64,000 nucleotides of DNA, taken from positions 1 to 64,000 of the forward strand of contig JYFJ02000699.1 of the NCBI GenBank assembly GCA_000934665.2. Direction: 5' to 3'. Below the pieces are notes generated by a model that saw nothing but the letters and a program-made list of their open reading frames with translations, was not told the origin of the DNA and made no database searches. Positions 22,201 to 60,600 of the stretch are shown here, piece after piece (positions within the stretch are counted from its first letter, which is position 1; each line of letters begins with the position of its first letter). This DNA comes from Catajapyx aquilonaris (Eukaryota). A program made the translations under genes and the position numbers.

Positions 22201-22838
22201 CAACCGCTTTGATTTTTGGATGGGGGGGGGGGGGGGGGNNNNAAAGGGCCACTCGAAAATTTTAATATGATGTGCAGGATGTCATCCCCCAGCCCGGTGT
22301 GGTGTGTGCATGTGATTTATTCTGCTTCATAGTGTGTCCATGTCAATTAATGTGGACATGGTAATGGGGGTGTCAGTACTCCTGGGGTCATAATTGGCCG
22401 GTGGTACAGTCGGCGAGTAACGAATGGATGAGCACAATTATTTCATGGTTCCCAGCACTGCAAGTCAAATCGCTGGCCTGGAGTCTGATGAGGATTTAGG
22501 GCGGGCTAATTGATAGACATCCGCATTGACACGGGGCTTTATTGATCCTCCACCCACCCACCCACCCCAAACACTTCTGTTCAATTTGATCGGGAATCCG
22601 ATTCCTCATGGGTGTACACCAGTCTAGACGAATGACATCACGTCCAGTCGCCTCACGCCAGTTCTGACGCCTTGGCTGGCATTCTTAGCAAAAAAGCCGT
22701 AACTGCATGCGAGATAAGAGGAAAACAAGATTTGCAAATCAAGGGAGCGTGATTCTAGTAGACTTTTTCTTGTTGACATGAAAATTCTAATTAGACAATA
22801 ATGATATGGAAAGTTGTCAGTCTCATTCATAGTTTCAG

Positions 22839-28300: not shown

Positions 28301-29582
28301 ACCACCTTAGTCGTAAATAATACTTTTCGAGAACCTGAGTAATTTTCATTGCCAGCAATAAAAACAATGTCTTTTAAGTATTATTGGAAAACTGGCATTT
28401 GCATTCATAATGATATCTTACGATTAATGTCACATATTTTTTGGGAAAATGTCAGTGCAAGTTGGAATGGAAAAGAGAGTGCGACCCAGCCATTAAAATA
28501 AGCAAGAGTTCACAAAAAACGAGTCTACGTTAAAGCCAACTACTGTGGTCCATTGGGTTTTATAATCACAACATTGAGCACCAAAATAATCATGCTGTTG
28601 AATACGAAGAACTGGTTTCACATGCCAATGACATCTACTGTTGGCTCAACGAATCCGAGGACTTCATCTCACTGGGTCTGTCCATCATGTCATGAATGCG
28701 CATTTTGAGTGTGACATAAATATTGCTTCGGGTCCTCAGATTTCCTTGCACCAGCAGTACATCCAACTGCCTCAAATAAACAATATATTCATTGCACCTC
28801 GCTTCGAAAAATAAATAAATTAACCGGGGGCCAAACACTGGCTGTTAATCCGAAGCCAGCCGCCTTAGATTCCTAAATAAACATGATCACCTAACAAACA
28901 ATGTAACAACGCCAAAGTATCGCCCTTGTAATTACGCAGCTCCAATGATTTTGCCACCTCATTACACGAAACTGGCTGCTACGTAAATGGAAAACCTGTT
29001 AGTACATTTATGCTGGCCTAGTTCGACCACAACATTTGAAGAACAGAATTTCAGTTACACGAACCAATGAAATGCAGACATGGTCACGTATTCATCTCTT
29101 AGCTATATGCAAATCTTTAGTTAACGATCATTACTGGTTAACAAAATGGCCAGGCATATTCCATCATGATGTGACCTGGACTTCTGCTGAAATGACCGTG
29201 TACATATCGAGATGGCTGATCATTAACAACAACAACAACAGAAAAGACCTTCCACCGTAATATTGACATTCCGCCTATCGTCAGACTTGCCTTTTGAGAC
29301 ACGCAGGGAGAAATGAAAAGGAACTAAAGATTGCAACATGGCCACAGTCATACCTTAGAGAGAAATGTAATTCCTAACTACAAAATCCGGGTTCTCACAT
29401 TTTGAGAGTGAAATCTTCCAACGATTGGACAATTGCATTGCTAGGGCATGGAATTTCCTTCTTACCCCAAGTTTTTCCATTGACATTCCTTCACATTAGT
29501 AAAATTGCAATTGCCTAAATACGTCCACATAATTGAAATAAATTAAATATTCCAAAAACGGCCACTACAACACTCCCAATAT

Positions 29583-30013
29583 TTACATGCTAATTAGAGG
29601 CTCACCTCCCCCACAAATGATTCCCCCTCCGCCGACCCCTGCTCCTTCCACCGCCCCACCCCCACCCATCCCGTCCCCTCCTCCTTCTCCGCCGAGACTC
29701 CTCAAGACAGTCTGCATACCCAGCTTCCCTGCCAGGATGGCATGAGACTCCATCCTGTTCCAAATGGTGCCCATGAAGAGTGAGAAAAGTAGCAACAATG
29801 CAACTGCAGAGCGAGCGAGTGTCCAAGCGAGTTGAAGGGTCGTTTGTGGAAGCTCCACGTAGATGGTGGACAGAAGCAGGACCAAGCAGAGAGCCGAGAG
29901 GAGCCAGTAGTTGCGCTTGTCTCGCATGAGAGACGACAAGGCCGATTCGCACACCTGCACACCTTCATTCAGGGTTGCGGTCGTCACGTTATGGTCAGGT
30001 GGCAGACGAGGAG
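29583..30013 (-). CDS. SMPD2: nSMase exon 7 (two transmembrane helices plus Gly-rich tail)
   Basis: Acceptor ttttccAG in matching phase; YWLLSALCLVLLLSTIYV and AVALLLLFSLFMGTIWNRME; stop TAA. Confidence 0.85.
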
Positions 30014-33000
30014 CTGGAAAATAGAAATAAAAACGTTATTACATCAATCTGTGCAGTTCATGAAGAAGACGGTTACAAGTTAAGTACATTCTCTTGAAAG
30101 CTAAGTTTAATTCCCTTCGATGTGTATCGACAATCACACAAAATAATAACAATATTTACGGTTCACTCTTTTCACTAAATGTGAACATTTTTCTGGACAT
30201 TAGCGTACACGAAATCTGGGTCACATTGACCCCTTCGTATGAACAACATTCCACAAAATACAAAAGATGAATTGGCATATATTCATGACAAATAACACAA
30301 TAATCGCATTTGTTCTTGGAATTGTTCATGTCAGAAAACAAAAACAGCTTTATGATCTTTGGTTATTGCTAATACAAATAATGCATGGAGAATGCTTTAA
30401 ATAATAATACTAGATAACAAAGGCGCACTTGCAGAGGCATCAATACGCCGTACACTATTGTTATAAAGCAGCAACCAACAGAGTGGAAAAACATGACCTA
30501 CGACAATCCACATATGTTATGAAAGCTAACAAAATATTTGCCAAGGTATTGTCTGTTTCATTCCATCACATTTTATGGGGCAGTTGGCCATGATAGAAAA
30601 TCATACCCCACATAAAGGGAAGCATCAAAAACAACATTGGATTGTTACAGAAACAATATCACAAAGACCCATGGTCGTGACATTGAGAAATTCTTGGATC
30701 ACGTCAACACCTGAGAGAGAAACTGTATAAAATGAGGGCCAACTCGCATAGAACGTTACACAGCTCCATTGGATTCCGATCAGAGCAGATCGCAACCCAT
30801 ACAGAATGAAGTCCTTCCTGATGATATTTGTTGTAATCGTCTTCTTGGCCCTTGCTGCTGCAGACCGTGGTAAGTAACTACTTCACACACATGCAGAGAC
30901 AACCACAAAGTAACTGTTATCTGAACTGTTCGAGACATTATTTTAAAACATCCTTAATTACAGGTGGTGACTACCGTGACCCAAATGGTGGCTACGAAGA
31001 TCGCAATGGTCAAGGGGATTATGGAAATGGTGGCGACAATGGTGATCGTCAGTAATTGTAACCATCAACAAGCTCTCGCACTTGAAACTAATGAGAGTAA
31101 GAAAGTAAGTATGAAAAGTTTTAAGTCCCTTCAGATCTATTCCACAGTACAGAGCAAAAGTTTCTTATGCAAAGTTAACAAAATAATCTTTACCGTCATG
31201 TTAGAACCAGGATTGCAACTTGCAACAAATGTAGAAAACTATTGAAAACTATTGGACACCCGTCGGCCGTCATTCACTGCTACAACGATGCATCCCCTCA
31301 CATCCCAGGGAAACTATCACTGCGCTGAAATATCACACCGCACATGGTAACTACAATATCCGAACATACAGGCATGGGATTTGGTGTATTACAAGATAAA
31401 TAAATGCACTTGGAATTGGCAAAGAAAACTGCTTTTGTCTATTTGCTGCCTCTCTTGGTCCTTCATTTCTGCTCTTTGGCAGAAATATGCTGCGTAAAGA
31501 AGTCCTTGCCTCTCCTAATTTTTTCTGTTACAATTATTTAACATGCGAAGATTGGAGTTGTCCCACCCCATCCTTTCGAACTTTTGATTTGTAAATTGGC
31601 AAATACGCTCTAAGTTCCGGCAACTGTTTGCAATGAGCTTGTCCTACACTGGTTCTCAATATAAACTACTTTAAACTTTTCAACCAGATGGGTCACTCAT
31701 GACTACTGCAGAGACACAGACTTTTATGGACAACAAAACATTGCTGAAGTTTCCGTATTTTCCTCGAATGATACATAGTATTGTTCAACACAGTTGCTCG
31801 CACAATCTGAAGCAAAGACTGTGACTCTCCCTTGAACTTTTGCCATGTAAAGTCTCAGCCATGATTGTCACATGTCACTGTACCCAAGGCATCTACATTG
31901 GCCATAATTCTAACACTTGTCAATCCACTCCCGTAGCAATGAAGGTATGTAGGCTACTGCTTCCTCAAGATCCGCACTGCAATTGACTAAAATATCGTTG
32001 AGCTTGCTTCATCCACTCCATGGCTGTGGGCTCACTGTGGGTAATTTTGAAATGACCGTTGTACTCCCTGCCAGGATATCAGCAGCTTTTTCACTAAAAT
32101 ATTACTTATTTTTTTCAATACTTCAAATAATTACCACAATTCCACACGATGGAAGATAAAAGAAACCATCACGAAGCAATGAGACAAAGAGCTACTGCAG
32201 TGACTTTGGGAAGAGCTTTGTTCATGGGACACCAAAGAAAGAGACTGCATAAAATGATGGCTCAGTCACACACAACATTACATAGCTCTGTTGGAATCTG
32301 ATCAGAACAGATCACATACACTGTGAAATTCTTCCTAAAGATTTTTGTTGTGGTCGTCTTCTTCGCATTTGCTGCTGCAGAGCGTGGTAAGTACACTGCT
32401 TTTTTGCAGTCTTCAAGCCAAGACAGAAAACATGTGAAATGAATAGAATGGCTTGCACTAATATAGTCCGGTCAATATCATCATCAAGTTGATATATTGG
32501 TCTGATTGACTAGGCTGTGTGTGGGTTTAACGGCGGAGCAGCTGTTGGAAATTATAGGCGAGGAGAACACCGAGCTCTTTCAGGGCCGGTCTATTCGGGA
32601 CCATGTGAAGGTGATAACGAGCAGGATATGCAAAAACGATACCCAGGAAAATTGGACCTTGGAGGTGTCGGCGGGGTTCTACCCAGACCTGATGAAGGAG
32701 GGGTGACTGCAGGTCGACCTCAATGACTACATCGTGGAGGAGATTGTCCGAACCGACAGATGCTTCAGGTGTTGTGCCTATGGTCATGCAGCTCAGGGAC
32801 CCCGCAAATGTCAGCACAAACCGCGATGTGGACGATGCAGGCGGGCATGAGGCCCAGACGTGTCGGTTGACGGAGGTTGGCTGCGTGCCTTGTTGGTGGT
32901 TGGTGATTTCAACGGCCGTTCAGTGTGCTGGAGCGACGTGGAGGAAAACAACATAGGCGTTCGGGTGTTGGAGTGGTCAGGCAGCTGGGACATGGTGCTG

Positions 33001-36000
33001 GTGGATGGTGTAATGGTAATTTGGGGTGATATAGGTGTGGGAATGGGAAGGGGGATGGGGAGAAGGGGTTGAGGATGGGGTGCGTAGGTCAGGTGCCGGA
33101 CCAAGCGGGTTGGGGGCACTTTGGTTACCAGTATAATCAAATAGGTAGGAACTCGATAATAATGTCTTTTAATATGCGAATAGAACAAGCTACAGTCGTG
33201 ACTCAATACTCTGGGCCTAATCGGGACGCCTAATAATGTCTGAAACTCTGAATATGTGACACCCCACTTTCACCTCTACTCACTCTCTCTCTCTCTCACT
33301 CTCTGGTCGTCTCCTGTCTTCAGGCCGTCTCTCTCTGGCCAGCTGTCTCTTCGGCCGGCGGCTTCCTCTTCTTCTGGCCGGTTGCGTCTCCTCTTTTCTC
33401 TGCCGGCTGGCTTTCTTTTATATGCTTCTCTATCTTTCGCCGCCCTTGACCGTCGGTATATGTGGGCATCTTGTCATCCTTTCCTCCACATGTGTTATAT
33501 CTGTCATGTGAGGTTTCTATATTTGCCCTTCTCTTGTGACTTGAGTCCATAACTCCATTAGTCATCCTCATGTGCGTCCTCATATGCTTCCTCGTTACAC
33601 CTCTTTAGGAGGAAGCGCGGTGTCCCTTTTGCACGGGACGCCGTCGCTTACATGATACCCAGGTCATCCTGATGGGGTCGGGGACTGCTCTCCGGACACA
33701 GCACCCACCGCTGCTCCGCCTGGACCTGCCCTCTCAGCTTCTGTGGTCCAACTCATTGGTTTCGACAGCTCCTCATCCTGATTTGCCAAGAGATAGAGAG
33801 AAAGCTTGTGGAGGGTCACCTCCCTTTACGCTTGCATTGTGCCAAATCTGTCCTGGCGGCCTCCTGATTTTGCCCAGAATTCCCCACAAAACGTAGTCAC
33901 ATATATGTAACAACAAGTGATCATTTCACCAATGAACCCACATTGAAATACGCAGAATCCTACAATATTCTCATAGAACGACAGCTCATACCCAAATGAA
34001 AATATGACTGAGACTACCCGTCCAAAATCCCTAGAGCAAGAACAGCAAAATAAAAATAAAACAAAACAAAAATGACAAAATTAAAATAATAATAAAAAAA
34101 CTTAAAAACGCCTTGCATATACGGGCGCTACCCTTGTGATACGACTCCAACGTCAGCTCTGAAATCCAGTGAGTGAGTAGAGGTGAAAGTGGGGTGTCAC
34201 ATATTCAGAGTTTCAGACATTATTAGGCGTCCCGATTAGGCCCAGAGTATTGAGTCACGACTGTAGCTTGTTCTATTCGCATATTAAAAGACATTATTAT
34301 TGAGTTCCTACCTATTTGATTATACTGGTAACCAAAGTGCCCCCAACCCGCTTGGTCCGGCACCTGACCTACGCACCCCATCCTCAACCCCTTCTCCCCA
34401 TCCTCAACCCCTTCTCCCCATCCCCCTTCCCATTCCCACACCTATATCACCCCAAATTACCGTTACAATGGGAAAGTCGCATCGATCTGACCTGGACAAG
34501 GGCATTGCACGTGGCCAATTGGAGGCTGGAGAACGGGCTCCTCCTCAGGGATCACCAGAGGATCTCCTTCGAACTTGCCGACGATGGGGGGCCTCCGCCC
34601 GTTCTGCAGTGGATCACTTCTAGAGCGGACTGGGACAATTTCCGTAATGCACTCGCGGAGTGGACCCGCGACAGGCAACTGGAGAGTGCTGCTCTGGGGG
34701 AGGAGGCAACGGCGTTCCAGGACACTTGTGTGCGACTGGCGGAGGACTACATTCCTCAAGAGACGGTGCAGCCACAAAAGTCGTGGACCTGGACCGCGGA
34801 GCTGAGCTCGAGGAGGAGAGAGGCACAGGCGGCCAGGCAGGTGTGGCAGCATGCTCGGCGGGACGATCCCGAACGGGCTGAGGAGGTGGCCAGGGAGTTC
34901 CAGAGGCTGAGGTGGGCCTACAAACGGGCCATACGGGCTCATAAGCGGGAATCGTGGCAGATACTGCGAGCATCATTTGGAAAGGGATCCCTTCTCACTG
35001 CCTTATAGGATCCTGCGAGGCAACGTTCCCGGCCCAATGAGGGAATCAACTTCGGCGGGGAGAGTCTGGAGCACATGGACCACGCCTGTGTGGAGCGGTT
35101 TCCCCCCGCGGATGACGGCTCCTGGTCTGCAATCGAGGAATGCGGTTGCCTTCTCTTGTCGAGGGGTCCTTGGGGCTCCCATGTCTGCCTGGGCTGGGTG
35201 CAAGCGCACGTCGGCACACTTGGCAACGAGTTTATCTCACCCCACACACCGCACCCCAATATAAAAATAAGTAAATAACATAGGGCAATAAGGTCCTTGC
35301 TCAGACTATGGAGTTTTCACGTCCCTCAGGGTACTTGAGAAATCATCATATACATCTTAATAACTCCACATATCCACAAGGGTCTTACTACTCCAGCTGC
35401 AGCAATCTAATGGAGCTTCTCATGAATTTTGATTGTGGGAGGATTCATGGGAAAACCCTCTAAAACATGGATAGAATGCATCAAAACTCTATTTACATAA
35501 GCATCCTCTGTCCAACCCATGGATCAAACTTGGGACCTCAGATGTGGAAGGCTGAGGTGATAACCAATACACGGCATAATAGTGCAACCTTGACTACTCT
35601 TTTATCATTACGACGATTAATGTCATTAAAACCTTCATTACCTACCAAAAACTTTGCATGCCCTAAAAATGTACATACGACTAAAGTGCGACAGTAAGTG
35701 TAACTAAAAAATGTGGTGTGTAAAGCAGTTGAGGTATTAAATCCTTGGACTTCCGAATGAATATTTTCCAAGGAATATTCACTGCTTGTCAGGTCACCTC
35801 AGCTAAATGATAAAAACAACACTACTTCATATCAAGAGAAATACTTACCTCCTTCGAATTTGCTGATTTTAAACCTGGCCAAGACGGCTTCATGGTCCGA
35901 GTAGCTGAATTCTTTCCCCAGGACGCGGTCTGGAAGTGGCATCGAATATTCCAGCAGGTCCATCTGTTAATTAGAACAAGACGTCATTAATGCCTTGCAC

Positions 36001-39000
36001 AAAAGCATACCAATTAACAAAAACTAGCGATGAAAGCTATAAATTGACTTGTTCTCACAATCGAAAACAACTAGGCTACATATTTGTAACTATTACATCT
36101 GTCCTGAGTGGCATGAAAGTAGTTACTGGTGTTTTCTTGTACCTTGACATTGAGTCCGGTTCGGAACATGATGTAGTCAAGCCTCTTCCCAAGTGGATTC
36201 TTCATCAGGAGATTAGCTGGGGTGTACGTGTTTGTTGCAGTCTCGTTGGTACCTCCATATTCACTTGTAGGCTGATAGGAAAAACAATTCACCATTAGCA
36301 TTTTATAGACGAACCACAACAATAATGCACTTGCTGTTGCCAACATGATGGTCACCTATGGTTCCCCATCAAGTCAGTATTATCATACTCACGTAAGACA
36401 ATACAATGAAGTAATGTGCCCTGAATATACCAAAAAACTTGCTTGCCGAGGGCGTCACTTGGTGCCTAGTGGATTTAACCGATTTCTATAATTTAACGGG
36501 GCAACATTCTGTACGCAGAACTTAAATGGAACAAACAACTCGGCTCATTGTAAACAGTTATTAACATACTAGTGCACCCGTAGCCAAAATTTGGCAAAAC
36601 CAGCAATGAGGAAGACCATGGTAATGAAAAAATGGAATGAGAGGGCTCGCGGAGTGACAACTAGGAAATAGCGTATAGCTGGTCGTCGTAAGACTGGGTT
36701 GAAAAATTGAGTGGCATTGAATGAATGGACATACTGTACACTTCCTGAATGGGACATGAGAAAAGTTTTCATAAAACCTCGCGATATACAACATTGTGTG
36801 TAAACACACTGTTCCTTGTTGAGCAGTAGGAGTAGTGAACACTTTGACCTGACTTGGGTTGCGAGAGCGGGACAGTGCCACATGCAGCTGGCCATGATTG
36901 TGAGAAGACAGGTTCATCCAGGGAAATGCTAACGTGCTGATCTGGCCCTGCGAGTTGTTGATCATCATGGCATAGGCCGGGATGACATTATGCCAATGAA
37001 CATAATTATAAGACTTTTGGATCCGGATCTAGCAGGCTATGATTAAGGCTACCAAACTGCCTCAGCGGGCGCCTATTTTGGCGGCTGGAAGTGGTCTGGC
37101 TCTTTAAAAATATAGAATTTAATGACCTGAGCACGCAAATTAATGGCCAATTAATGACCAGGTAATGGCTTCCTGGGATTAACACTTCGCCAAAAACAAC
37201 CTAAGAAAATGTGTTTTTCTGAAGTATGGTGGTACATCATTCATTAAGCCAGCAGGCTGCAGGACCTGAAAGGTTGGACCAGCCCTTAACCTCTTTTCAG
37301 TCATGCAATAAGCTGTCAAGATTAATTTACACCATGCAACAAAAATCACCTTCGTTTCTGTCCATGGAAGTTTATCGCTATTTCTATGTTCCTTAGGTCA
37401 CTCGCAACTCATAATGACCACTCATTTTGTCTGAAATGGTTTTTTGACCTCGAGGCAGGCAAAAAACGAATTCCCCCGAAATGTAGGAGTCGAATCAAGT
37501 GGGTCTAAATGTTGCCAGACCATCTCAGATTTTGGTGAAAAAAATCACAGCTGTACACAACTATGCCATAACGCTGCATGTCAAGTTTCATCCGTATTGA
37601 TCAATACCATGGTCTTAGAATACTAAGGTCAGGACACTCCCTCTTATTGCATGTTGGGCAGTTTTGCATGAGGTGCTCACTTGAGAGCGCCATGAGACAG
37701 CTTTTCATTGCGCTATTATGTGGCGACCCTACCAGACTACGATGAACTAAGGTAGAAGAGAAGCCGCTACATGCGGGCCCAACATGGCCGCCGGCGACCA
37801 TGTTGGGTCCCCCAATGTAGCACTTCCCTTTTGTACCTATAAAGTTCAGCATAGTCCGGTAGAGTCACCACATAATAGCTCAGTGAAAGGTATCATGGCG
37901 CTCTCAGGTGATCACCTCATGCAAAACGCCCCGGCAAGCGATAAGATAAGATTGTAGGGGAAGTGTCCAGGGGCTGATCAATACCATGGGGAGGAGTAAA
38001 ATCACTACATTTTGGAAAGGGCTGAAAATGAAGCCTTTCTTGGATAATTTTTAATCAGTTAGTGGAAGTGGACAAAACCCTATCAACATATATTATACAG
38101 CATGTAGGATACAGGGCGTTCCAGGTTCGTGGGTCACTTTTTGATAACTGATATTGCCCAATAAAAGATAAGCACGAGGAGAAAGCGCCTATGAAATTAG
38201 TTTTCCTCAAATATGTAACCAGAAAACGGGTGTGGCCAAGGGGTTAGCAACTCCTTGGAACCGGTGTACACCCTGGCCAAGGAACCAGCTTGGAACCAGC
38301 CTGGAACCAGGTGGAGCCAGCCAGGAACCAGGGTGGAACTGGCATGGAACTGGCTTGGAACCAGCCTGGAACCAGGTGAAGCCAGCTTCAAACCAGCTCG
38401 GAACCCGGATGGAACTGGCTTGGAACCAGCCTGGAACCAGGTGGAGCTGGCTTGGAACCAGCCCGGAACCAGGGTGGAACTGGCTTGGAACCAGCCTGGA
38501 ACCAGGTGGAGCTGGCTTGGAACCAGCCCGGAACCAGGGTGGAACTGGCTTGGAACCAGCCTGGAACCGGGTGGAGCCAGCTTAGAACCAGCCCGGAACC
38601 AGGGTGGAACTGGCTTGGAACCAGCCTGGAACCAGGTGGAGCTGGCTTGGAACCAGCCCGGAACCAGGGTGGAACTGGCTTGGAACCAGCCTGGAACCGG
38701 GTGGAGCCGGCTTGGAACCAGCCTGGAACCAGGTGAAGCCAGCTTCAAACCAGCTCGGAACCCGGATGGAACTGGCTTGGAACCAGCCTGGAACCAGGTG
38801 GAGCTGGCTTGGAACCAGCCTGGAACCAGGGTGGAACTGGCTTGGAACCAGCCTGGAACCGGGTGGAGCCAGCTTAGAACCAGCCCGGAACCAGGGTGGA
38901 ACTGGCTTGGAACCAGCCTGGAACCAGGTGGAGCTGGCTTGGAACCAGCCCGGAACCAGGGTGGAACTGGCTTGGAACCAGCCTGGAACCGGGTGGAACT

Positions 39001-42000
39001 GGCTTGGAACCAGCCTGGAAATGGGTGGAGCCGGCTTGGAACCAGCCGGAACCAGCCTGGAACCATCCTGAAACCATCTTGGAACTGGGAACCTACCAGT
39101 TCCAGGATCTGGTGTACACTTTTTTGGGGAGTTGCTAACCCCTTGGGTGTGGCATTTCATTGGCCACTTGCTCAGTCACATGTCCAAGAATTTTGACCCC
39201 AACAATATTAGTGATGTATTAGAATAACAGCAGTCATATTTGGTGACAAGGGTTGCGACCCATGCAAGGTTTAATATGTTCAGTTTGAAGCCTGGTTCAT
39301 GCATGGCTCGTGAGAAAATATTAGAGATGTTTCGTATTAATCGTAGATATACCATTAATTTTCAAGGACCCAAATTCTTGGACATGTGGCATATGGAATG
39401 CCACACATATTATTCTGGTCATACCTTAGAGCAAAACGAATTCCATAGGCGCATCCTGCTCGTCTTCCTCTTTCTTTTGATGATGTTTATTGGAGTTTGA
39501 CCACTTCCACTAACCGAAAATAAATATGCAAAGAAGCCCTTTCCAAATTTTGTCGTTTTTTTTCCCCCTCCCCACTTAATTGTGCAATATGGATGAAACT
39601 GGATATGCAGGGTTATGGTATTATTAGATGTGTACAGCAGTGACTTTCATCACCAAATTCAGAGATGGTATAGGAACATTTCAGTCCACTTGATCGAGGA
39701 ATTTGGATTTTTGACTGCCCTGAATCAAAAACAAATTTCAGGCAAAATGAATGGTCATTATGAGTTACACGTGACCTACGGAACAGAAAAAATATAGAAA
39801 TAGCCATGAATTCCCCTGGACAAATGTCGTGCTATTTAGTTTCAAAAAAATAGACAGGATAGAGGTTATCATTCTTTGCTGTACAACAGAAGTTCACTTC
39901 TCAGAATCTTTAAATTTAATGACTTTAATGACCTCTTCTCAATATTAATGACTTTTAATGACTTGGCAAATAAATAATGACTTTTACGGAAAATAATGAC
40001 CCACTTCCAGCCCTAAGGTAATCAGAATGAGAGATTTGTGTAGTTAGTTATGGGACGTAGATCTTCACTTCAACTTTGGGCCGACAAAATACATCACTGT
40101 ATAGGATAACTATACCTGATAGTGTATTTTGACTGGTTTGTAATATTAATGCCGGTGCTGATTCCCCCCAAAAGGGCCATGCCCTGTTACAGGGTATTTA
40201 ATTAATTAATCAATTAATTAAAAGTGTGCAGATTTCGCCACCTTGATTTTAACTGAATGAAGTGTCGGTACTATCCTTCAATGGGTGTATGTTCCTGGGC
40301 ATAACTCAATTTTGACATATTTGTGGGTTGACCCGTTATTGCATATCACTGTCCAATTATTATCCCCCCTCTTCTTTCGATCACTTCTGTGTGCATTGAC
40401 TGACACCAAGGTCAACATATGTACCAGACACTACACACGGCTTTGCTGCTATTAATTAATTAATAAATAACATATTTCGATAATCTACGTATGTAGGCAT
40501 GCCCATGGCAACAGAATTTTGTTGGTGAAGACCATAGAAATAGGCAGTGCGAAGAACGGGTTCCACTGTTAGTCAAGTATAATATAAAGCCCCTATCCGA
40601 GGAGGAGGAGGAGGAGGAGGAGGAGGAGGAGGAGGATGGAAAAGATTTCACACTTCCCGAGGTTTGTAGAGCACTGGTTGAAGTTCCGTTGGATTCTTTG
40701 CCCCGTAATTAGCAATGCCAAAAATCTTCATAATCGCCAATTTCCCAGCCATTTTGGAGATAGCCAAAAGTCGACTTTTGTAAGTGAGGCCTTGCCCATC
40801 TGCTTGTCATTAAGCTGCCGGAGAACAATAGCACACCCTCTCAGGAGTCCCCTCCACCCACCGCTGACATCTGGATCCACTCTAATCCCACCTCAGTGCC
40901 TTTTTCACCATACTTCAGCAGCTAGGGCGCATTCTCATACTCCACACCTTTAGTGATGACGTCATGGGTTCTGTAAACGGATGCAACCCTGCTCCGACCA
41001 ATTTTTGTGTAAAAAGACTTGCTCTGTTCACATCGGAGAGTGGGGTAAGTGTGGGGTGGCTGGGTGCACCTCTACCGGGCCTGGGAGAGTTACGGAGACT
41101 GAGGAGGACCTGCGCGGGACCCGACCAATTTGCGCTGAAGGCACGTAAGTGGGGCGCAGCCTCGCAAAGCGATTCGATAAATATACAACCACAAGCACTT
41201 CAAAATTGCTTCCAAGATCTGGTTTGATAAGCATGGAATTGCCCACAAATGAAACAGAAAAAAAACTTCCTATTTCCATCTGACATTGTCAGGAACATTT
41301 CATTTAAAGTGGGAAATTCTCAATCATGTCATTAAGTTATTTCCGCCCCCTTAATTTCATCCAACCTTATCAAAATGGCAAAAGGCATCCTCCAAATGTG
41401 CGCCATGCAGGATGAGCTTGTATGCAAGGTCCCCAGGCTCTGTGTTGAGGTCTCCTCCCATGATGACTAGGTCCGCACCATGGGCCGTTAGTCGGACGAA
41501 CTGGCCTAGTTCAAACGCTTGAGTCATGCGATGTGCAAAGTACTCATCATTCTCACGGTCATACTCTGCATGCAACTGTAAACAGGGAAAAAATCAATAT
41601 CGAACCTTCAAACAATTTCTCATGCATATAGGTAACCATTGTAAACAGGTCAAAACCTCACATGTGTGGTGTAGAGGTTGATCCTGAGTCCTCTGTGTCG
41701 AACTCTGCAGAGACCGAACCCTTTCCCTCCGAACCAGTCTCCATGCTGTATCTTGTGGACGTAACCGTTCACAGCCCACTGATGGAAAAACACATCCTTT
41801 ATGGGTGCCTTTGACAGGATGCAGATTCCGGCGCCAAGTACTCCACTGAAACAACGACAATTCATGAGCACAACCCCTGGGTACCACACCGATCAAGTGG
41901 CATACCTGTGGAAGTAATGTGTGTACGGCAGCACCTCCTCCGTCCTCCTCTTGATCCGAATGTAGTCCTCCTGGGCCCAGACTTCCTGCAGGAACACGAA

Positions 42001-48175: not shown

Positions 48176-51107
48176 TATAAACTTATTTATTCATTCTCAT
48201 GCCAGTCATGCGAAGAACGAGTCCCAGCATACTACTTTCCAGTGTAATACATCTTCACCTCGGGTCGGGCTGTGAAAAGTCTCACTAAATCTGAAATTCT
48301 TGTTTTCTAAAGGATTCGTACGGAAGATAGCCTGGTTTTGATAATGACCTACTCGTCTCGAAGTGTACAATTTAATAATTTTCATGATATTGATTTTTTT
48401 GACATCGTTGTATTGGCTTTATTCATCAGAAGCGTCCATATATCCGGCAACCCCTATGTAACAGACTGTCACAATATTCGTCGCCCCCCCCCCCCCCCNN
48501 NNNNNNNCCCCCCCCATCTTTCCCTCCCTGCAACGTGCCAGCTGAGGAGTTAATGGCCCATCACATGACCTGCCCTAATTGGCATGGGCAAGCAATGTGG
48601 GTCGTCAGCCACGATCCATCTCTTATGCAACACCCCACTTCCTCCTCTTGATCGGTGGTACCTTTGCCTCTCTGCGTATATACATAAATACAAGAGAGAG
48701 AGAAGGGTGGTGGGGGGGGCCATGCAGTAAGGGGCTGGTGGGTCGGCTCCCCCCAAATAGGCCCGACCCAATCCCCGAGCCCGGTTATTGGATTCCTAGT
48801 TGGCGCAGCAGGCGGAAGAGGGTCCCGAGGTTTGCGAGTTGGCCTGGCTTGGAGGGGCGGAACCAGATCCGGAGTTGACCCTGCTCAGGGTAGGTAGGCC
48901 AACTACTGACCCTTCTTCACTCCCGCCAACCAGGAAACGGCTGTGAGCCGTTAGTACAGCTCCAGCCGTTACATTGTGTAGGAAGAGGCCATGCAGTGAG
49001 GTGTGACCCCCNNNNNNNNNCCCCCCCCCCCCCCCCCCAAATTAGTGACCTTTGACCCTCCTGAAATGAGTAGCGTGTGATTTCTCCCAGGTGTGAAACC
49101 ATGATGGAGGAAGAGCAGGGGGCTGTTTGGGAGGCCCCTCCGGCCAAGCTACGCCACTCCAGGTCCACTCCAGGTCCTTTCTACTACCAAGACTGGACCA
49201 AAGAGATGAAAATCAAGATACCCAAAGGTATGCCTTGGGACGATTATCTCATTGGACGTGTAATCACGTGTGGCGTGCCACACGAAAAAGGCTGTGTAAT
49301 CAAGTATTAATTCGTTGCTTCTACACGACCGTATTGATTTCTTGTCCTGATTTTTTTTTTTTTTGGTCTGTGGTACTTGTTTCTTCCAGTTATACGGTGT
49401 TGTTACTCATATGTTGTATTTCAGTGTTTAGAGAGCATGGTTGTGGTGTGGATGTGTAAATGGTGTTTTTAGTGTTCAGTGTCACTTTCACGGTGGGCTT
49501 AAGTCACTATGCTTATTCTGCGAGCACTTCGTCACCATGGACATAATTCAGATAAGTTCTCTGAAACTTTACATTGGACGTTTTAACTTGATGGGATTAG
49601 TTGAGCCATACTAATATTATGAATTATTGTAAGAATTGAACCAATCAGAAGAAGGTCCTGATTAGACAATGAAATCTTGATTTCATGACTTCAATTGAGG
49701 TGAATTTCAGGGATGGAATAAGCTGATTATTTTCAAAGTTGATTTTAGGTATGTCTAAATTATTAGCTGACTATTCAGGTCTTAATATTAATTTCATCTA
49801 GATTAATAGTTCATTGTTTGAAAGTTAGACTTGTGGTGAACTCCTTTATACTTTAATAAATATTACCGTAGTATAAAGGTGTTCACCACAGAAGATACTA
49901 GTATTATGAAGATGCTAATATTAGCAGATAATATATATTCAAACCCTAAAAATTAACAGCAGAAATAATAGCTCACAAAAACATGGTCTTAACTGACTTC
50001 ATCCAGTTTAAAACCCAGTGTTTTGTTATAAAATGTCTCTGAGTTATGTCCCATGAGATATCTCAATATCACATATTTTATATAACGTTGGCTTGCTGCA
50101 ATATTTGGACACTTGCTTGAAACAAATATGGCCATTCAAGCAAAATAGCCTCGTATATCGCTTGCACAATCGGTCTGTACCAGTAAATAAAATAACATTT
50201 CTCCTACTTAATTTACGACTCCCTAAGGAGGAATAAGTACCGGTACAGACCCTACTGCTTCTCCACTTTTTCACTCTTTTTAAAAAAAAGAATCCCGCTG
50301 TATAGCATTTAAATTTTTTTTCTTCCAATCCGGAAAAAGGACAGAACCTTCAAAAATGACATTAACAACTTTCAACAAACGTTACTTTCCATTAAATGCC
50401 CAGCTTGTAAAAGCATTTGTAACGGGTCACTCCATATCGATCCTTATTGGAGGGGGGGAGGGGAGAGTGGAGAGAAAAAAATCCGATGCTCTTCCTCTAT
50501 TTTGGGTTGGTTTCGATCAGGAAGCGGAAGCCACCGGAATGAATATACGGTCCGGTTTTATGAGAACCATTACGTCTGAATTACGTACCGGTATACCACT
50601 CTGAGGAAATGAGGTAGGCGATAGAAGATTGGTTTGCTGTTGGAGAAGAAGAAAAAAAATGGTGGTCCACCCCGCTGTATTAGGTCTCGAGTTAAAATTG
50701 GGATCAAAGATCCAAGAAAAGATCGGAATAGAGAGCTATTGATAGATCAACAGCTACTTCGCCGCCCGAACCACGTGAAGAATTGGGTAAACAAAGAGGG
50801 GAGCCAATCTTTCTCCCAAAATAAACAAACAATGTGAAGTTGACACTCGGGAGCTTTTAGAAGGAGCCAGGTTACCGCTTTAATTTTCTCTCCTCTTCCC
50901 TTTTCTCCAGAGGGAGGGGCGATATTATCAAAGGACTACTTCCGGAAAATGATACTCGTTCTCTATTTGTTCCCGAAGATTTACTTTGCGAGTGACGATG
51001 ACAATGCTGAGCTCGAAACGTTTCAGTGATTCTCTCGGGTGCGATGCCTGTCCGGCCGAGGCGTTAATTGCACTGGCGAGACTCGTTTAGATCAAATTAG
51101 TGAAAGC

Positions 51108-56708: not shown

Positions 56709-56950
56709 CCGACATTTTCCCGCCCATTTTTGTTTCGTCTTTGTTTATTTCTGGTTGGAAACGCCGACATCATCATCCGCACGCGTTTCCGAGTTGGGCC
56801 GGGTTTTGGCAGTGATTCAGAGCTTATTTTGCTCTCTCCGGTAGCGGGGGGAGAGCGGGCCTAGGTCCCACTATATGTGTGTGTGTGTGAGTGTGTGCCA
56901 GCACGTTCAGCGGTTCCAGGGATTGAGCAACACCACCACCAGACGCCACA

Positions 56951-57679
56951 ATGAATCTTATGTTTGGTGGCAAATTCCATCGAACAGAGAAGGACTCCAT
57001 GGGATCTGGCGGAAGGAGCGGAGGAGGATTCGGAGGCGGCGGAGGCGGAGGAGGGCATCACCACCACCACCATTCGTCGGCCAGGAGAGGGTACGACACA
57101 GGAGGGTCATCCGGGGGGCTGATGATGGGCCCCGGGGCTGCTCCTGGGATGAGGGGCGGGCAGAGACAGCAGGTGGTCCGATCGCCATTAGACGACCACA
57201 ACCACTACCAGACCCACATCCTGATGGGGCAATGGAAGGGCGGGTACGAGACGGAGCAGGAGGAGGACATGGCCCGGTACTACTCCTCCTACAAGAAGGG
57301 TACGTCCACGGTCATCAAGTGGGGACCTGGAAGACAGGACTCTCAGAAGAGGTCAGGGGGCAGGGGGGACGAGAGGGAGGTCGGAGGAGGAGGTGTGTCC
57401 AGACAGACGAAGCAGGTGAGTTTCAGTGCGGACCAACAACCTCCAGAGGGAAGTGTCGGTGGTGGTGGTGGTGGTATTGGTGGTGGTGGTGGTGGTGGTA
57501 GTGGCGCGACCTCTCCTTCCGGAAGGACAAAGGGCAAACCAGAACCGGCCTCGCCCCCAGGGCCGACCCTGGACTCGCCCACCAAGAAGGAGAGTGAGAA
57601 GGGGATGACCACTCTGACCAAGGACTGCTTCATCATCCCGGTGGCCAGCATCGACCGGTTCCTACCTGCTGGAGTTACG
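56951..57679 (+). CDS. First coding exon (243 codons) of an uncharacterised protein with Gly/His-rich low-complexity N-terminus
   Basis: Long GC-rich ORF with coding-like codon use, ACAATG start, poly-Gly and His6, ending in a globular-looking segment MTTLTKDCFIIPVASIDRFLPAGVT at ACG|GTAAGT; later exons not identified in the window. Confidence 0.8.
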
Positions 57680-60600
57680 GTAAGTCCAATTTCCTGTTCG
57701 TGTCCACTAAATTCTGGGACAGTCATGGGTTTAAAAACCATCTCAGTATAGGCCAATATCAAAACCAGCAGGCTTCAGTACGAATCCTTCAGAAAAAACA
57801 GGAATTATTTCAGATTCTAATGAGTCTTTTCACACACTTGAGACACCATGAGATATATAGCCTGGTTTTTATACTGTCTGTTCATTTTCTTGGCCTTTAG
57901 TACGAGTAATAGGGTAGGTTTTCTCGGGTTTGCTCCCCCTCCCCGCCCAACCCCTGACTCTCCCCGATTGCGAAAAATCTTCACGAAAATAAACAGACCT
58001 GCTAATTTTTTTTTGAAATGTTACAATCGCAGTAACATTATAGGAAGCAGTCGATATCCGACCTGCAAATCGATTTTGTAGGAACCTAATTATAACCGTT
58101 ATCTGCAAAACCGGAAACTTGATACGCCCTCGAGGCTTTTCACTATTAACCGCTAATAATTAGCTTAAAAAATTGGGTTTTCCTCCAGAGAGTATGTGAG
58201 AAAATAAAAGGAAAGCAGGTGGGCTTTGAAAGCCCCCCCGGATCGAACCCTTTAATCCGGACCTGGAGACATGTCCCTGGCTGCATTGTCTCCATTGTGC
58301 TTTCCAGTAAGGGAGCGCAAGGCATTAATTTCAATTTCCTGTCTCGCCCGATTAATAATTCGCGAGAGCCAATTAGTGGCGACTTCCCGCTGCACTTATC
58401 GCGTTTCACCACACGCTACAGCTTCCTGCGAGCGATAAAATTTGAAGGCACGAGTTGGAGGGGGTGGTGGGTTTGGAATGAGATGGTTTTTGTCCAGGCC
58501 ATTCATGTGGGCGGGTTGGATAACTTTTTCCCCCTCCAATCGAACCGAATTGATTGGCAGAGAGGGTTTCCAACAAACCAAAAAAAAAGTGCGGTTGACT
58601 ACGAATCGGCCTCAATTACACCGCATTTTTGACTCGGAGAGAAATTCCTGAAGACACTTTAATGCGGTTGTTATAGCCTGGAATTTGCTTATGAGTATTA
58701 TTCAGGTATTATTCTATAGTTGTCATGCAATGCACGTGGGTGTCACGCTATAGTTTGGGCAAAAAGATGTGATTAAGTGTGAGTACAAGGCGACGTATAC
58801 GCGGTAAAAAGTAGGCCAGGGCGTTATGGACATTTTATTTTTCATGTACTTTTTTGACATTTGCAGTACGATGACCATTCGCACAGTTCGCGTGTATAGA
58901 CTATGTGCGATAATGACATGCGAATTATCTCTAATTATTTTAAAATCGCATGTCATAAATAATAGTAAATTGTCACAGCAGATGACAGGTGATTTTATGA
59001 CATTGCGCCATGGGCCCATGGGCACGGGAAAATCCAGCTTTAAATCATTTAAAAATTCCAACTAACGACAGGCAGGGATGCAGTATTATTGACGTTACAT
59101 GTAATGGAGTACTGAAGGTTGCGTAATATGATACAGCCCGTGAAAGTTAAAAGTACTCGTGAACGCACTTAGGCACGTGACTGATAGCTCAGGCAGACTA
59201 ATCTCTTGTTTTGTCTGAGCCGAAAGCATCATATACACCCGGATGCTATTTCCTGCATAGATAATAATTATTTGTTTGCATTATACTGTATGTGAGTAGT
59301 TATCACTTTATTCACGTGAACCGTACATCGTCAGATAAATTGTGGTAATTGTGGACAAGTTACAGTACTTGGCTGAATTACATTGTACATTCGAGTATGC
59401 TTGTATACATGTAAAGGTACACCGCTTGATAATTCGAGTATAATTGAAATTAATGCCATTTTACAGTACAGTGTTGCTATGACTATTATTTTCATGTCGT
59501 ATTATATGAAGTCATATAATTGTGTGCACTGTTCATTCTACACTCATTATAATTATGGCCACTGGATATATTTTTTACTTAATGCTAACATTTCAAACGC
59601 GTTTCCAATGGTTAATATTCAACCCGTTTATTATTCAACCGCGAATTTTACACCCTCTATAATTTTGATATCGTTTAAAAATCCGGCTATGTTTGTGGTA
59701 AATCTTCGCTGATTCTCCACAAATCTGTACAGCTTACGTGACACACCAAGAACTCTCGAGATTTTCAAGCTTCTCAGTCCGCTGACATTTATAAACGCAG
59801 TGTAGGTTGACAGTGTAAGAACCAAGCACTGAGACTATTAGTCATCGACCACACAAAGCTACAGTACGAGGGCCACGCGTTTGTATTTTCGTCCATCCTT
59901 TGCCATGTGGCCACCATTATTCACCTGTCCCATTAAGCCTTGCAGATACGGGTCGAGAAAAAAAAAACCTATGCAATACCAGCCATAAACAATTCCGTCA
60001 CCTTGTACTACAAGCCAAAGCCTTATCTTTTACGTCAGGCTCAGGAAAACCCCAGGTGTAAATTTCTTATCGCGACGCCCCAATCCGGTGGCGCATTGCT
60101 TTAATAAAACAGGATATTGACTTTTTCGAGCTCGCAGAAAGCAGCGGCCTTCATCAATATTCACACGCATGTGTTCGATTAATCCCCGTGCAAATCTCCC
60201 GGAGATTTCTTTTTTTTTCCTCTCTTCATTTTCTTACAGAGGTGGCCAACTGGCTCGCCAATTTCAATTCCGGCGTCATGTTGTCGTAACTCTCGCGAAA
60301 CTCCGGATCCTATTCTGGGCTTTCACCCACGATCCAGATCCTTTTTTTAGACGACCGAATCCCAATATAAATAACATGGCTTAAGGGCACTGAGCCAAAA
60401 CTTTAAGGAAGCCAAATTAATATTTTTAAAAAAAAACCCACGTGATGATCGATATTTGGTAAATTGAGACATTTTACGAGTGTTGATAGTTAGGGATTAA
60501 TGTGGTCTGATTGGAGGTTCCGTGGTTCAATTAGTAATCCGACCAAAGTTGGGATCCGCATTGACCCAAGCGGAACCCGATGGATAACGAGCGTATGTCA

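Follow-up and report, generated by a model that had tools for sequence, protein, structure and literature searches.

Nested genes that lie on the opposite strand of a host gene, wholly within one of its introns, with a TATA box and a poly(A) signal of their own and no overlap of exons, are common in insect genomes. Many small secreted peptides of arthropods are restricted to particular lineages. Those of the DIM/Bomanin type (PF08194) are made as very short precursors with the signal peptide in exon 1, and their genes are locally duplicated and lineage-restricted. The Tyr-sulfated peptides, which include the arthropod sulfakinins as well as the plant PSY-type peptides and their pathogen mimics, carry Asp-Tyr pairs in an acidic, Gly/Pro/Asn-rich context after a signal peptide. 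Among the Gly-rich, Cys-free antimicrobials of the diptericin, attacin and gloverin kind, the springtail diptericins are cationic, contain 21–25% Gly and have mature parts of 89–102 residues (available excerpt of PMC10051947). The springtail polyproline type II (PPII) antifreeze proteins, as the available excerpt of PMC10235112 describes them, are Gly-rich secreted products of 5.9–17.5 kDa with a 19-residue signal peptide, and are built from 6–13 helices of 3–4 Gly-X-X repeats with disulfides and an Ala-rich face. Here we analysed a 64,000-nucleotide stretch from Catajapyx aquilonaris (contig JYFJ02000699.1, positions 1 to 64,000; hereafter the window) and found that the last intron of its neutral sphingomyelinase (nSMase) gene contains a real, unannotated gene that is transcribed and has three exons. 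We put at about 0.72 the probability that it is a genuine, independently transcribed protein-coding gene, nested on the opposite strand of its host, for a secreted peptide of 32 residues. In its mode of action it probably resembles the many small secreted peptides that are confined to single arthropod lineages, and in its arrangement ordinary nested genes.

The gene had been proposed by a sequence-only reading, which placed at this site a TATAAAA promoter element, a first coding exon, a 94-nt phase-1 intron, a second exon and a downstream AATAAA, and which asked for RNA across the junction 30869^30964. We found each of these elements in place (Table 1). The TATAAAA element can be read straight from the sequence; the ATG at 30806–30808 opens a 64-nt coding stretch of which 21 full codons are translated; the intron has its donor GTAAGT at 30870 and its acceptor AG at 30962–30963; and the coding part of the second exon ends in TAA and completes a spliced frame of 51 codons. 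The junction itself is present in one 458-nt contig of a public sequencing run, X1. This contig covers 30769–30868/9, 30963/4–31104 and 31205–31420 with 0 letters that differ from the window, and it skips 94 nt (cut +1) and 100 nt, with anchors on the shorter side of 100 and 142 letters, respectively. Since both skips are bounded by GT..AG on the + strand, the transcript is read from that strand. The 100-nt skip is a second intron, which the sequence-only reading had overlooked and which lies in the 3′ untranslated region (3′UTR); the stop codon is 49 nt upstream of this last exon junction.

Run X1 was kept as Logan contigs (32 million letters in 85,611 contigs) and was the sole run that matched the window, with 45% of the sampled words present. 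When its contigs were aligned over 29000–32480, four fitted, all at ≥99%; the parts of this interval without X1 cover, including the partial copy of the gene described below, are uninformative on expression. The peptide contig had a depth of 355.9 and the host contigs depths of 2–24, but such values cannot rank genes and were not used as evidence. The ends of the contig mark the gene ends only approximately, because contigs do not define RNA ends to the base.

In the transcript, the 51-codon frame begins at the first AUG. Under a crude rule (Lys or Arg among residues 1–5 and a mean hydrophobicity ≥2.8 over a 12-residue window), a signal-peptide-like start follows only 1 of the 2352 ATGs that the two strands of the window contain, and that one is the ATG of this frame. 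When the transcript was shuffled, a first-AUG frame of at least 51 codons arose 1003 times in 20,000, and one that also had a signal-like start only twice. The leader has Lys at position 2, a core with 9-residue Kyte–Doolittle means of up to 3.66, and a sharp drop at Ala-Ala-Ala/Asp. Signal peptide cleavage follows the −3/−1 rule, with small residues at both positions; the codons of exon 1 end in Ala-Ala-Ala-Asp-Arg, and the sole position that fits the rule is the one after Ala-Ala-Ala. We infer that the first 19 residues are a putative signal peptide, cut at this site. The hydrophobicity profile and the −3/−1 rule thus support a signal-peptide-like N-terminus with a single Ala-Ala-Ala/Asp site.

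The predicted mature peptide of 32 residues contains 10 Gly, 7 Asp, 1 Glu, 4 Arg and 3 Tyr and has no Cys, exactly as first counted; the further residues are 4 Asn, 2 Gln and 1 Pro. It is thus 31% Gly and 25% acidic, with a calculated net charge of −4, an isoelectric point of 4.14 and a mass of 3447 Da, and besides Cys it is devoid of Ser, Thr, Lys, His and aliphatic residues. The degenerate repeats that had been seen in it (GDYRDPNG and the like) do not rise above what its eight-letter composition yields, with repeated 3-mers in 4949 and repeated 2-mers in 2834 of 20,000 shuffles, and Tandem Repeats Finder detected no repeat in exon 2. The proposed acidic context of Tyr is correct in that each of the three Tyr adjoins Asp or Glu, but it is not significant, since 1568 of 20,000 shuffles reach it. 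All four Asn precede Gly, an arrangement that does go beyond the composition, being reached by 107 of 20,000 shuffles, in a test that was chosen post hoc. Asn-Gly is the dipeptide most prone to deamidation, and acid-flanked Tyr is the usual context of Tyr sulfation in the Golgi. The C-terminus has a single run of four Gly-X-X; dibasic sites are absent (the peptide lacks both Lys and Arg-Arg), and the C-terminus does not end in a Gly with basic residues behind it. AlphaFold2 on the 30 residues of exon 2 gave a mean predicted local distance difference test score of 55.9 and a predicted template-modelling score of 0.12, with no secondary structure; the input was a single sequence, and the prediction is weak for that reason. 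We consider the mature peptide to be probably intrinsically disordered.

How does this product compare with the families introduced above? With the DIM/Bomanin type it shares the very short precursor, a putative signal peptide in exon 1, local duplication and lineage restriction. However, the PF08194 match spans only leader residues 1–19 and scores 11.3 bits (E 0.41) against a cut-off of 20.8 bits, so that membership of the DIM family is rejected; the mature part is Cys-free and acidic, and no immune promoter element was found. The Asp-Tyr pairs and their acidic setting after a putative signal peptide recall the Tyr-sulfated peptides, but the dibasic sites, the amidation signal and the further conserved residues of those peptides are absent here. 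Like the diptericin-type antimicrobials, the peptide is Cys-free and Gly-rich, and even exceeds the Gly content of the springtail diptericins; however, it is anionic and has no sequence match, and the diptericin reading is rejected on its net charge and on its 32 residues, as opposed to cationic mature parts of ~90–100 residues (excerpt of PMC10051947). The likeness to the springtail PPII antifreeze proteins comprises the length of the putative signal peptide, a Gly-rich product predicted to be secreted and a host gene that is most springtail-like. Measured by the features in the excerpt of PMC10235112, that reading is rejected as well, as there is one Gly-X-X run of four, a mass well under 5.9 kDa, and 0 Ala and 0 Cys in the mature part.

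A search of the window against itself revealed a partial copy of the gene 1.5 kb downstream, which matches 30650–30883; the similarity reaches 7 nt into the first intron and stops there abruptly. The copy has GTG in place of the ATG, no other in-frame ATG and no ATG in the exon, and an in-frame stop codon 21 nt upstream. Between the two copies, the coding part of exon 1 is identical at 52 of 64 positions (81%), the 5′UTR at 26 of 37 and two promoter segments at 31 of 43 and 51 of 76; the flanks are thus at 67–72%, and identity falls to <40% beyond the match boundaries. Of the 12 differences in the coding part, 3 lie at first, 2 at second and 7 at third codon positions, and the residues that change stay hydrophobic or go from Asp to Glu. 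This pattern lends modest support, short of significance, to past selection on the leader as coding sequence. We found no second exon for the partial copy and no similarity to 30884–31420 elsewhere in the 64-kb window, to which the search for paralogues was confined. On its sequence, the copy reads as a decayed or truncated duplicate, and it appears that a module of promoter and signal exon was duplicated long ago (~26% divergence) and that one of the two copies has decayed.

The DNA next to the partial copy is occupied by a retroelement that begins at ~32500, about 100 nt past the end of the copy, and that may have truncated it. At 32500–35300 the host intron holds two retroelement fragments in head-to-head orientation. 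Their arms (33036–33288 and 34168–34420) form a 253-nt inverted repeat that is 96% complementary, and one of the fragments has a frame resembling a CCHC zinc knuckle.

The host was assigned from open frames on the minus strand, in the interval from 42.1 kb to 29.7 kb, which hold recognisable pieces of neutral sphingomyelinase. With one host exon as query, 5 of 13 candidates were matching proteins, and with another exon 39 of 48; PF03372 was carried by 5/5 and 39/39 of these, and every named one is a neutral sphingomyelinase or a sphingomyelin phosphodiesterase. The best named matches come from springtails (80% in the queried exon), a stick insect, crickets and branchiopods. In a tblastn comparison of 11 nSMase proteins with the window, 10 gave 4–5 collinear minus-strand blocks, while one, P0019, gave 3 blocks, none of them beyond 36122; the summed identity of the blocks was 46–58% and was highest for springtails and branchiopods. 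Pfam on single host exons alone returned no match. By sequence similarity, the host is a neutral sphingomyelinase gene (EEP fold, PF03372) of a pancrustacean arthropod.

The claim that the gene lies antisense inside an nSMase intron was borne out by the host contig, the splice sites and the tblastn blocks. One host contig stops matching at 30015 and continues with 30 letters that exactly match 35851–35880, and the splice sites can be read in the sequence. All exons of the peptide gene (30769–31420, +) fall inside this intron with zero overlap with host exons, and the gene has its own TATAAAA and its own AATAAA. Antisense here means nested without exon overlap; pairing with the mature mRNA of the host is not expected. 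In all these respects the locus agrees with other opposite-strand nested genes of arthropods, and its nesting shows nothing unusual. Three other features of the host gene were noted. X1 contigs cover its 3′ part past the last coding exon (29000–29643), where a 2828-nt contig extends further and suggests a long host 3′UTR. Another host intron holds a minisatellite at 38281–39065 with 12 copies of a 65-nt unit (88% matches), which is open in several frames on both strands for up to 325 codons and has a sub-threshold Pfam match to DUF7372. A perfect (GAG)n microsatellite of 12.7 copies also lies in a host intron, at 40599–40636.

Table 1. Features of the peptide gene, its partial copy and the enclosing host intron
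Feature	Position	Strand	Description
TATA box TATAAAA	30726–30732	+	37 nt before the start of the RNA contig; CATAAAA in the aligned paralogous copy
Exon 1	30769–30869	+	5′UTR of at least 37 nt (30769–30805) without upstream AUG, then coding 30806–30869: putative signal peptide and first mature residues
Intron 1	30870–30963	+	94 nt, phase 1, GTAAGT...AG; contig joint
Exon 2	30964–31104	+	Remaining coding 30964–31052, TAA 31053–31055, first 49 nt of the 3′UTR
Intron 2	31105–31204	+	100 nt, GTAAGT...AG, within the 3′UTR; contig joint
Exon 3	31205–31420	+	3′UTR; AATAAA 31399–31404; contig end 16 nt past AATAAA
Partial paralogue, probably decayed	32173–32401	+	Promoter, 5′UTR, exon 1 and splice donor only; blastn 73.6% over 235 columns, E 1.7e-34
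Last intron of the host neutral sphingomyelinase gene	30014–35848	−	5835 nt; encloses the peptide gene and its partial copy along with two retroelement fragments in inverted orientation

Relatives of the peptide were sought in several kinds of collection. A word-indexed protein search with a 40-residue reference, which included 10 intron-coded residues, gave no candidate among proteins of 22–70 residues. When 1.84 billion representatives were searched exhaustively with HMMER, 3 matches had E ≤ 0.001 and 0 had E ≤ 1e-10; the three are one bacterial repeat protein and two translated repeat arrays, and are not relatives. The protein Atlas held no usable match. In metagenome contigs, a 48-residue reference produced 357 pattern matches, 0 of them confirmed, and a degenerate exon-1 pattern produced 0 matches. 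Nine motifs of the peptide are absent from the full-text literature searched, and the available excerpts of the topical literature contain no description of such a peptide. For 20 and then 134 open reading frames in the window, Pfam matches were confined to two DUF families and stayed below threshold; Pfam gave nothing on exon 2 and, on the leader, only the sub-threshold DIM match. Rfam gave 0 matches on the window, and no similar stretch turned up in the other DNA windows searched. The suggestion of a lineage-specific product fits this absence of any homologue, but the absence is weak evidence, because peptides of 51 residues are often left out of annotations. The word orphan, if applied to the gene, means only that it has no relative within the collections searched: proteins, metagenome contigs and literature.

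A number of points weigh against a gene for a secreted peptide. At 51 codons the frame is short, and since the transcript also has ATG frames of 45 and 49 codons in its other reading frames, length alone proves little. The peptide product is predicted from RNA and sequence, and its signal peptide was called with a home-made hydrophobicity rule. The excess of third-position differences between the copies is not significant (P = 0.066), and the loss of the start codon in the paralogue means that the family may be in decay. Searches of protein collections, metagenome contigs and literature gave no homologue with the frame preserved. The transcript is known from a single run of one study, whose library type is unrecorded. 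There is no exact κB-like site near the promoter and none in 15299–40843 (the window has 9, against 10.5 expected by chance), and the roles proposed below are candidates. The short frame and its two neighbours of similar size, the lack of a homologue in the collections searched, an intron in the 3′UTR, which is unusual for a tiny coding gene, and the 1003 shuffles with a first-AUG frame at least as long would all suit a non-coding RNA that is spliced and polyadenylated and is encoded within the host intron, its 51-codon frame having arisen by chance or being untranslated. We regard such an RNA as improbable, as the first AUG is followed by a textbook hydrophobic leader of a kind seen after no other ATG of the window, and length and leader coincided in only 2 shuffles; moreover, the coding part of exon 1 is better kept than its flanks between the copies, with differences that lean to third positions, and the stop codon is close (49 nt) to the last junction. 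A more radical alternative is that X1, its library type not being on record, is a DNA run, that the joined form is DNA (a processed retrocopy), and that the contig is then no proof of transcription. This is highly improbable: the contig ends 16 nt past an AATAAA, the run has only 32 million letters in 85,611 contigs, and X1 is cDNA-like, mainly because a host contig in the same run is also joined across the 5.8-kb intron.

Two further alternatives accept the peptide and differ on what it is for. It could be a structural or mineral-associated additive of a matrix such as cuticle, eggshell or cement, which would bind Ca2+ through its Asp residues or be cross-linked through its three Tyr. The composition points this way (the Gly and acidic contents, the acid-flanked Tyr, no hydrophobic residue), and it is similar to that of Gly/Tyr-rich elastic and cuticular proteins. 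Yet Pfam detects no chitin-binding or other domain, there is no Ser to phosphorylate, the acidic flanks of Tyr recur in 1568 of 20,000 shuffles, and at 32 residues and a net charge of −4 the peptide is far less acidic than typical mineral-matrix proteins; we hold this reading to be possible but doubtful. The other alternative, drawn by analogy with the small immune-induced molecules of insects, is a humoral peptide induced by infection. A gene with two coding exons, a very small secreted product, a TATA promoter and local duplication would all be in keeping with it, as would the sub-threshold DIM match to the signal peptide. That match is not significant, however, and the peptide is anionic and without Cys; the absence of a κB-like site near the promoter lowers the immune-induction reading slightly further, and we consider it unlikely.

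The gene yields a polyadenylated + strand RNA of ~458 nt, driven by the TATA box ~37 nt before its start, from which two canonical introns are removed and whose 3′ end lies just past AATAAA. On the favoured reading of a gene for a secreted peptide, the precursor would enter the endoplasmic reticulum co-translationally and lose its 19-residue leader, and a disordered, anionic peptide of 32 residues would be released by the secretory pathway. As it lacks a fold and has neither Cys, Ser and Thr nor any hydrophobic residue, it would most likely act extracellularly and in bulk, by means of its charge and the chemistry of its three Tyr, and not as a structured ligand. Our first guess, a tentative one, is an abundant soluble effector of the haemolymph or of a gland, from a fast-evolving, lineage-restricted family. 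An additive of cuticle, eggshell or some other matrix, cross-linked through Tyr or binding Ca, comes next and is more doubtful, and a Tyr-sulfated signalling peptide is a distinctly improbable third. It is also rather improbable that the gene founds a new family of acidic, Cys-free Asn-Gly/Asp-Tyr peptides in basal hexapods or their crustacean relatives, whose members would be activated after secretion by Tyr sulfation or Asn-Gly deamidation and would serve as extracellular signals or effectors. As part of that view, the gene may have been born from intronic sequence, and its family may have grown by duplication of the signal exon.

Elsewhere in the window, a GC-rich block at 56845–57751 (52%, as against about 43% elsewhere) has long + strand frames with runs of Gly; it has no Pfam match and may be the first exon or the CpG-rich start of another gene. 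The window also contains 24 N letters in five short runs (22239–22242, 44435, 47035, 48499–48507 and 49012–49020), which are assembly gaps or masked bases.

The finding affects no long-standing open question, and specialists would hardly be taken aback by it. Annotation routinely overlooks genes whose peptides are of such small size, and the searched protein collections contained neither the peptide nor a relative. Now that the gene has a transcript behind it, exactly mapped exons and a product of predicted mass, the peptide can be sought directly by peptidomics. If it is made, it would be an unusual addition, anionic and free of hydrophobic residues, to the mostly cationic small secreted peptides of arthropods. 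The intact gene beside its start-less partial copy offers a small case study of how a signal-peptide exon may be duplicated and decay.

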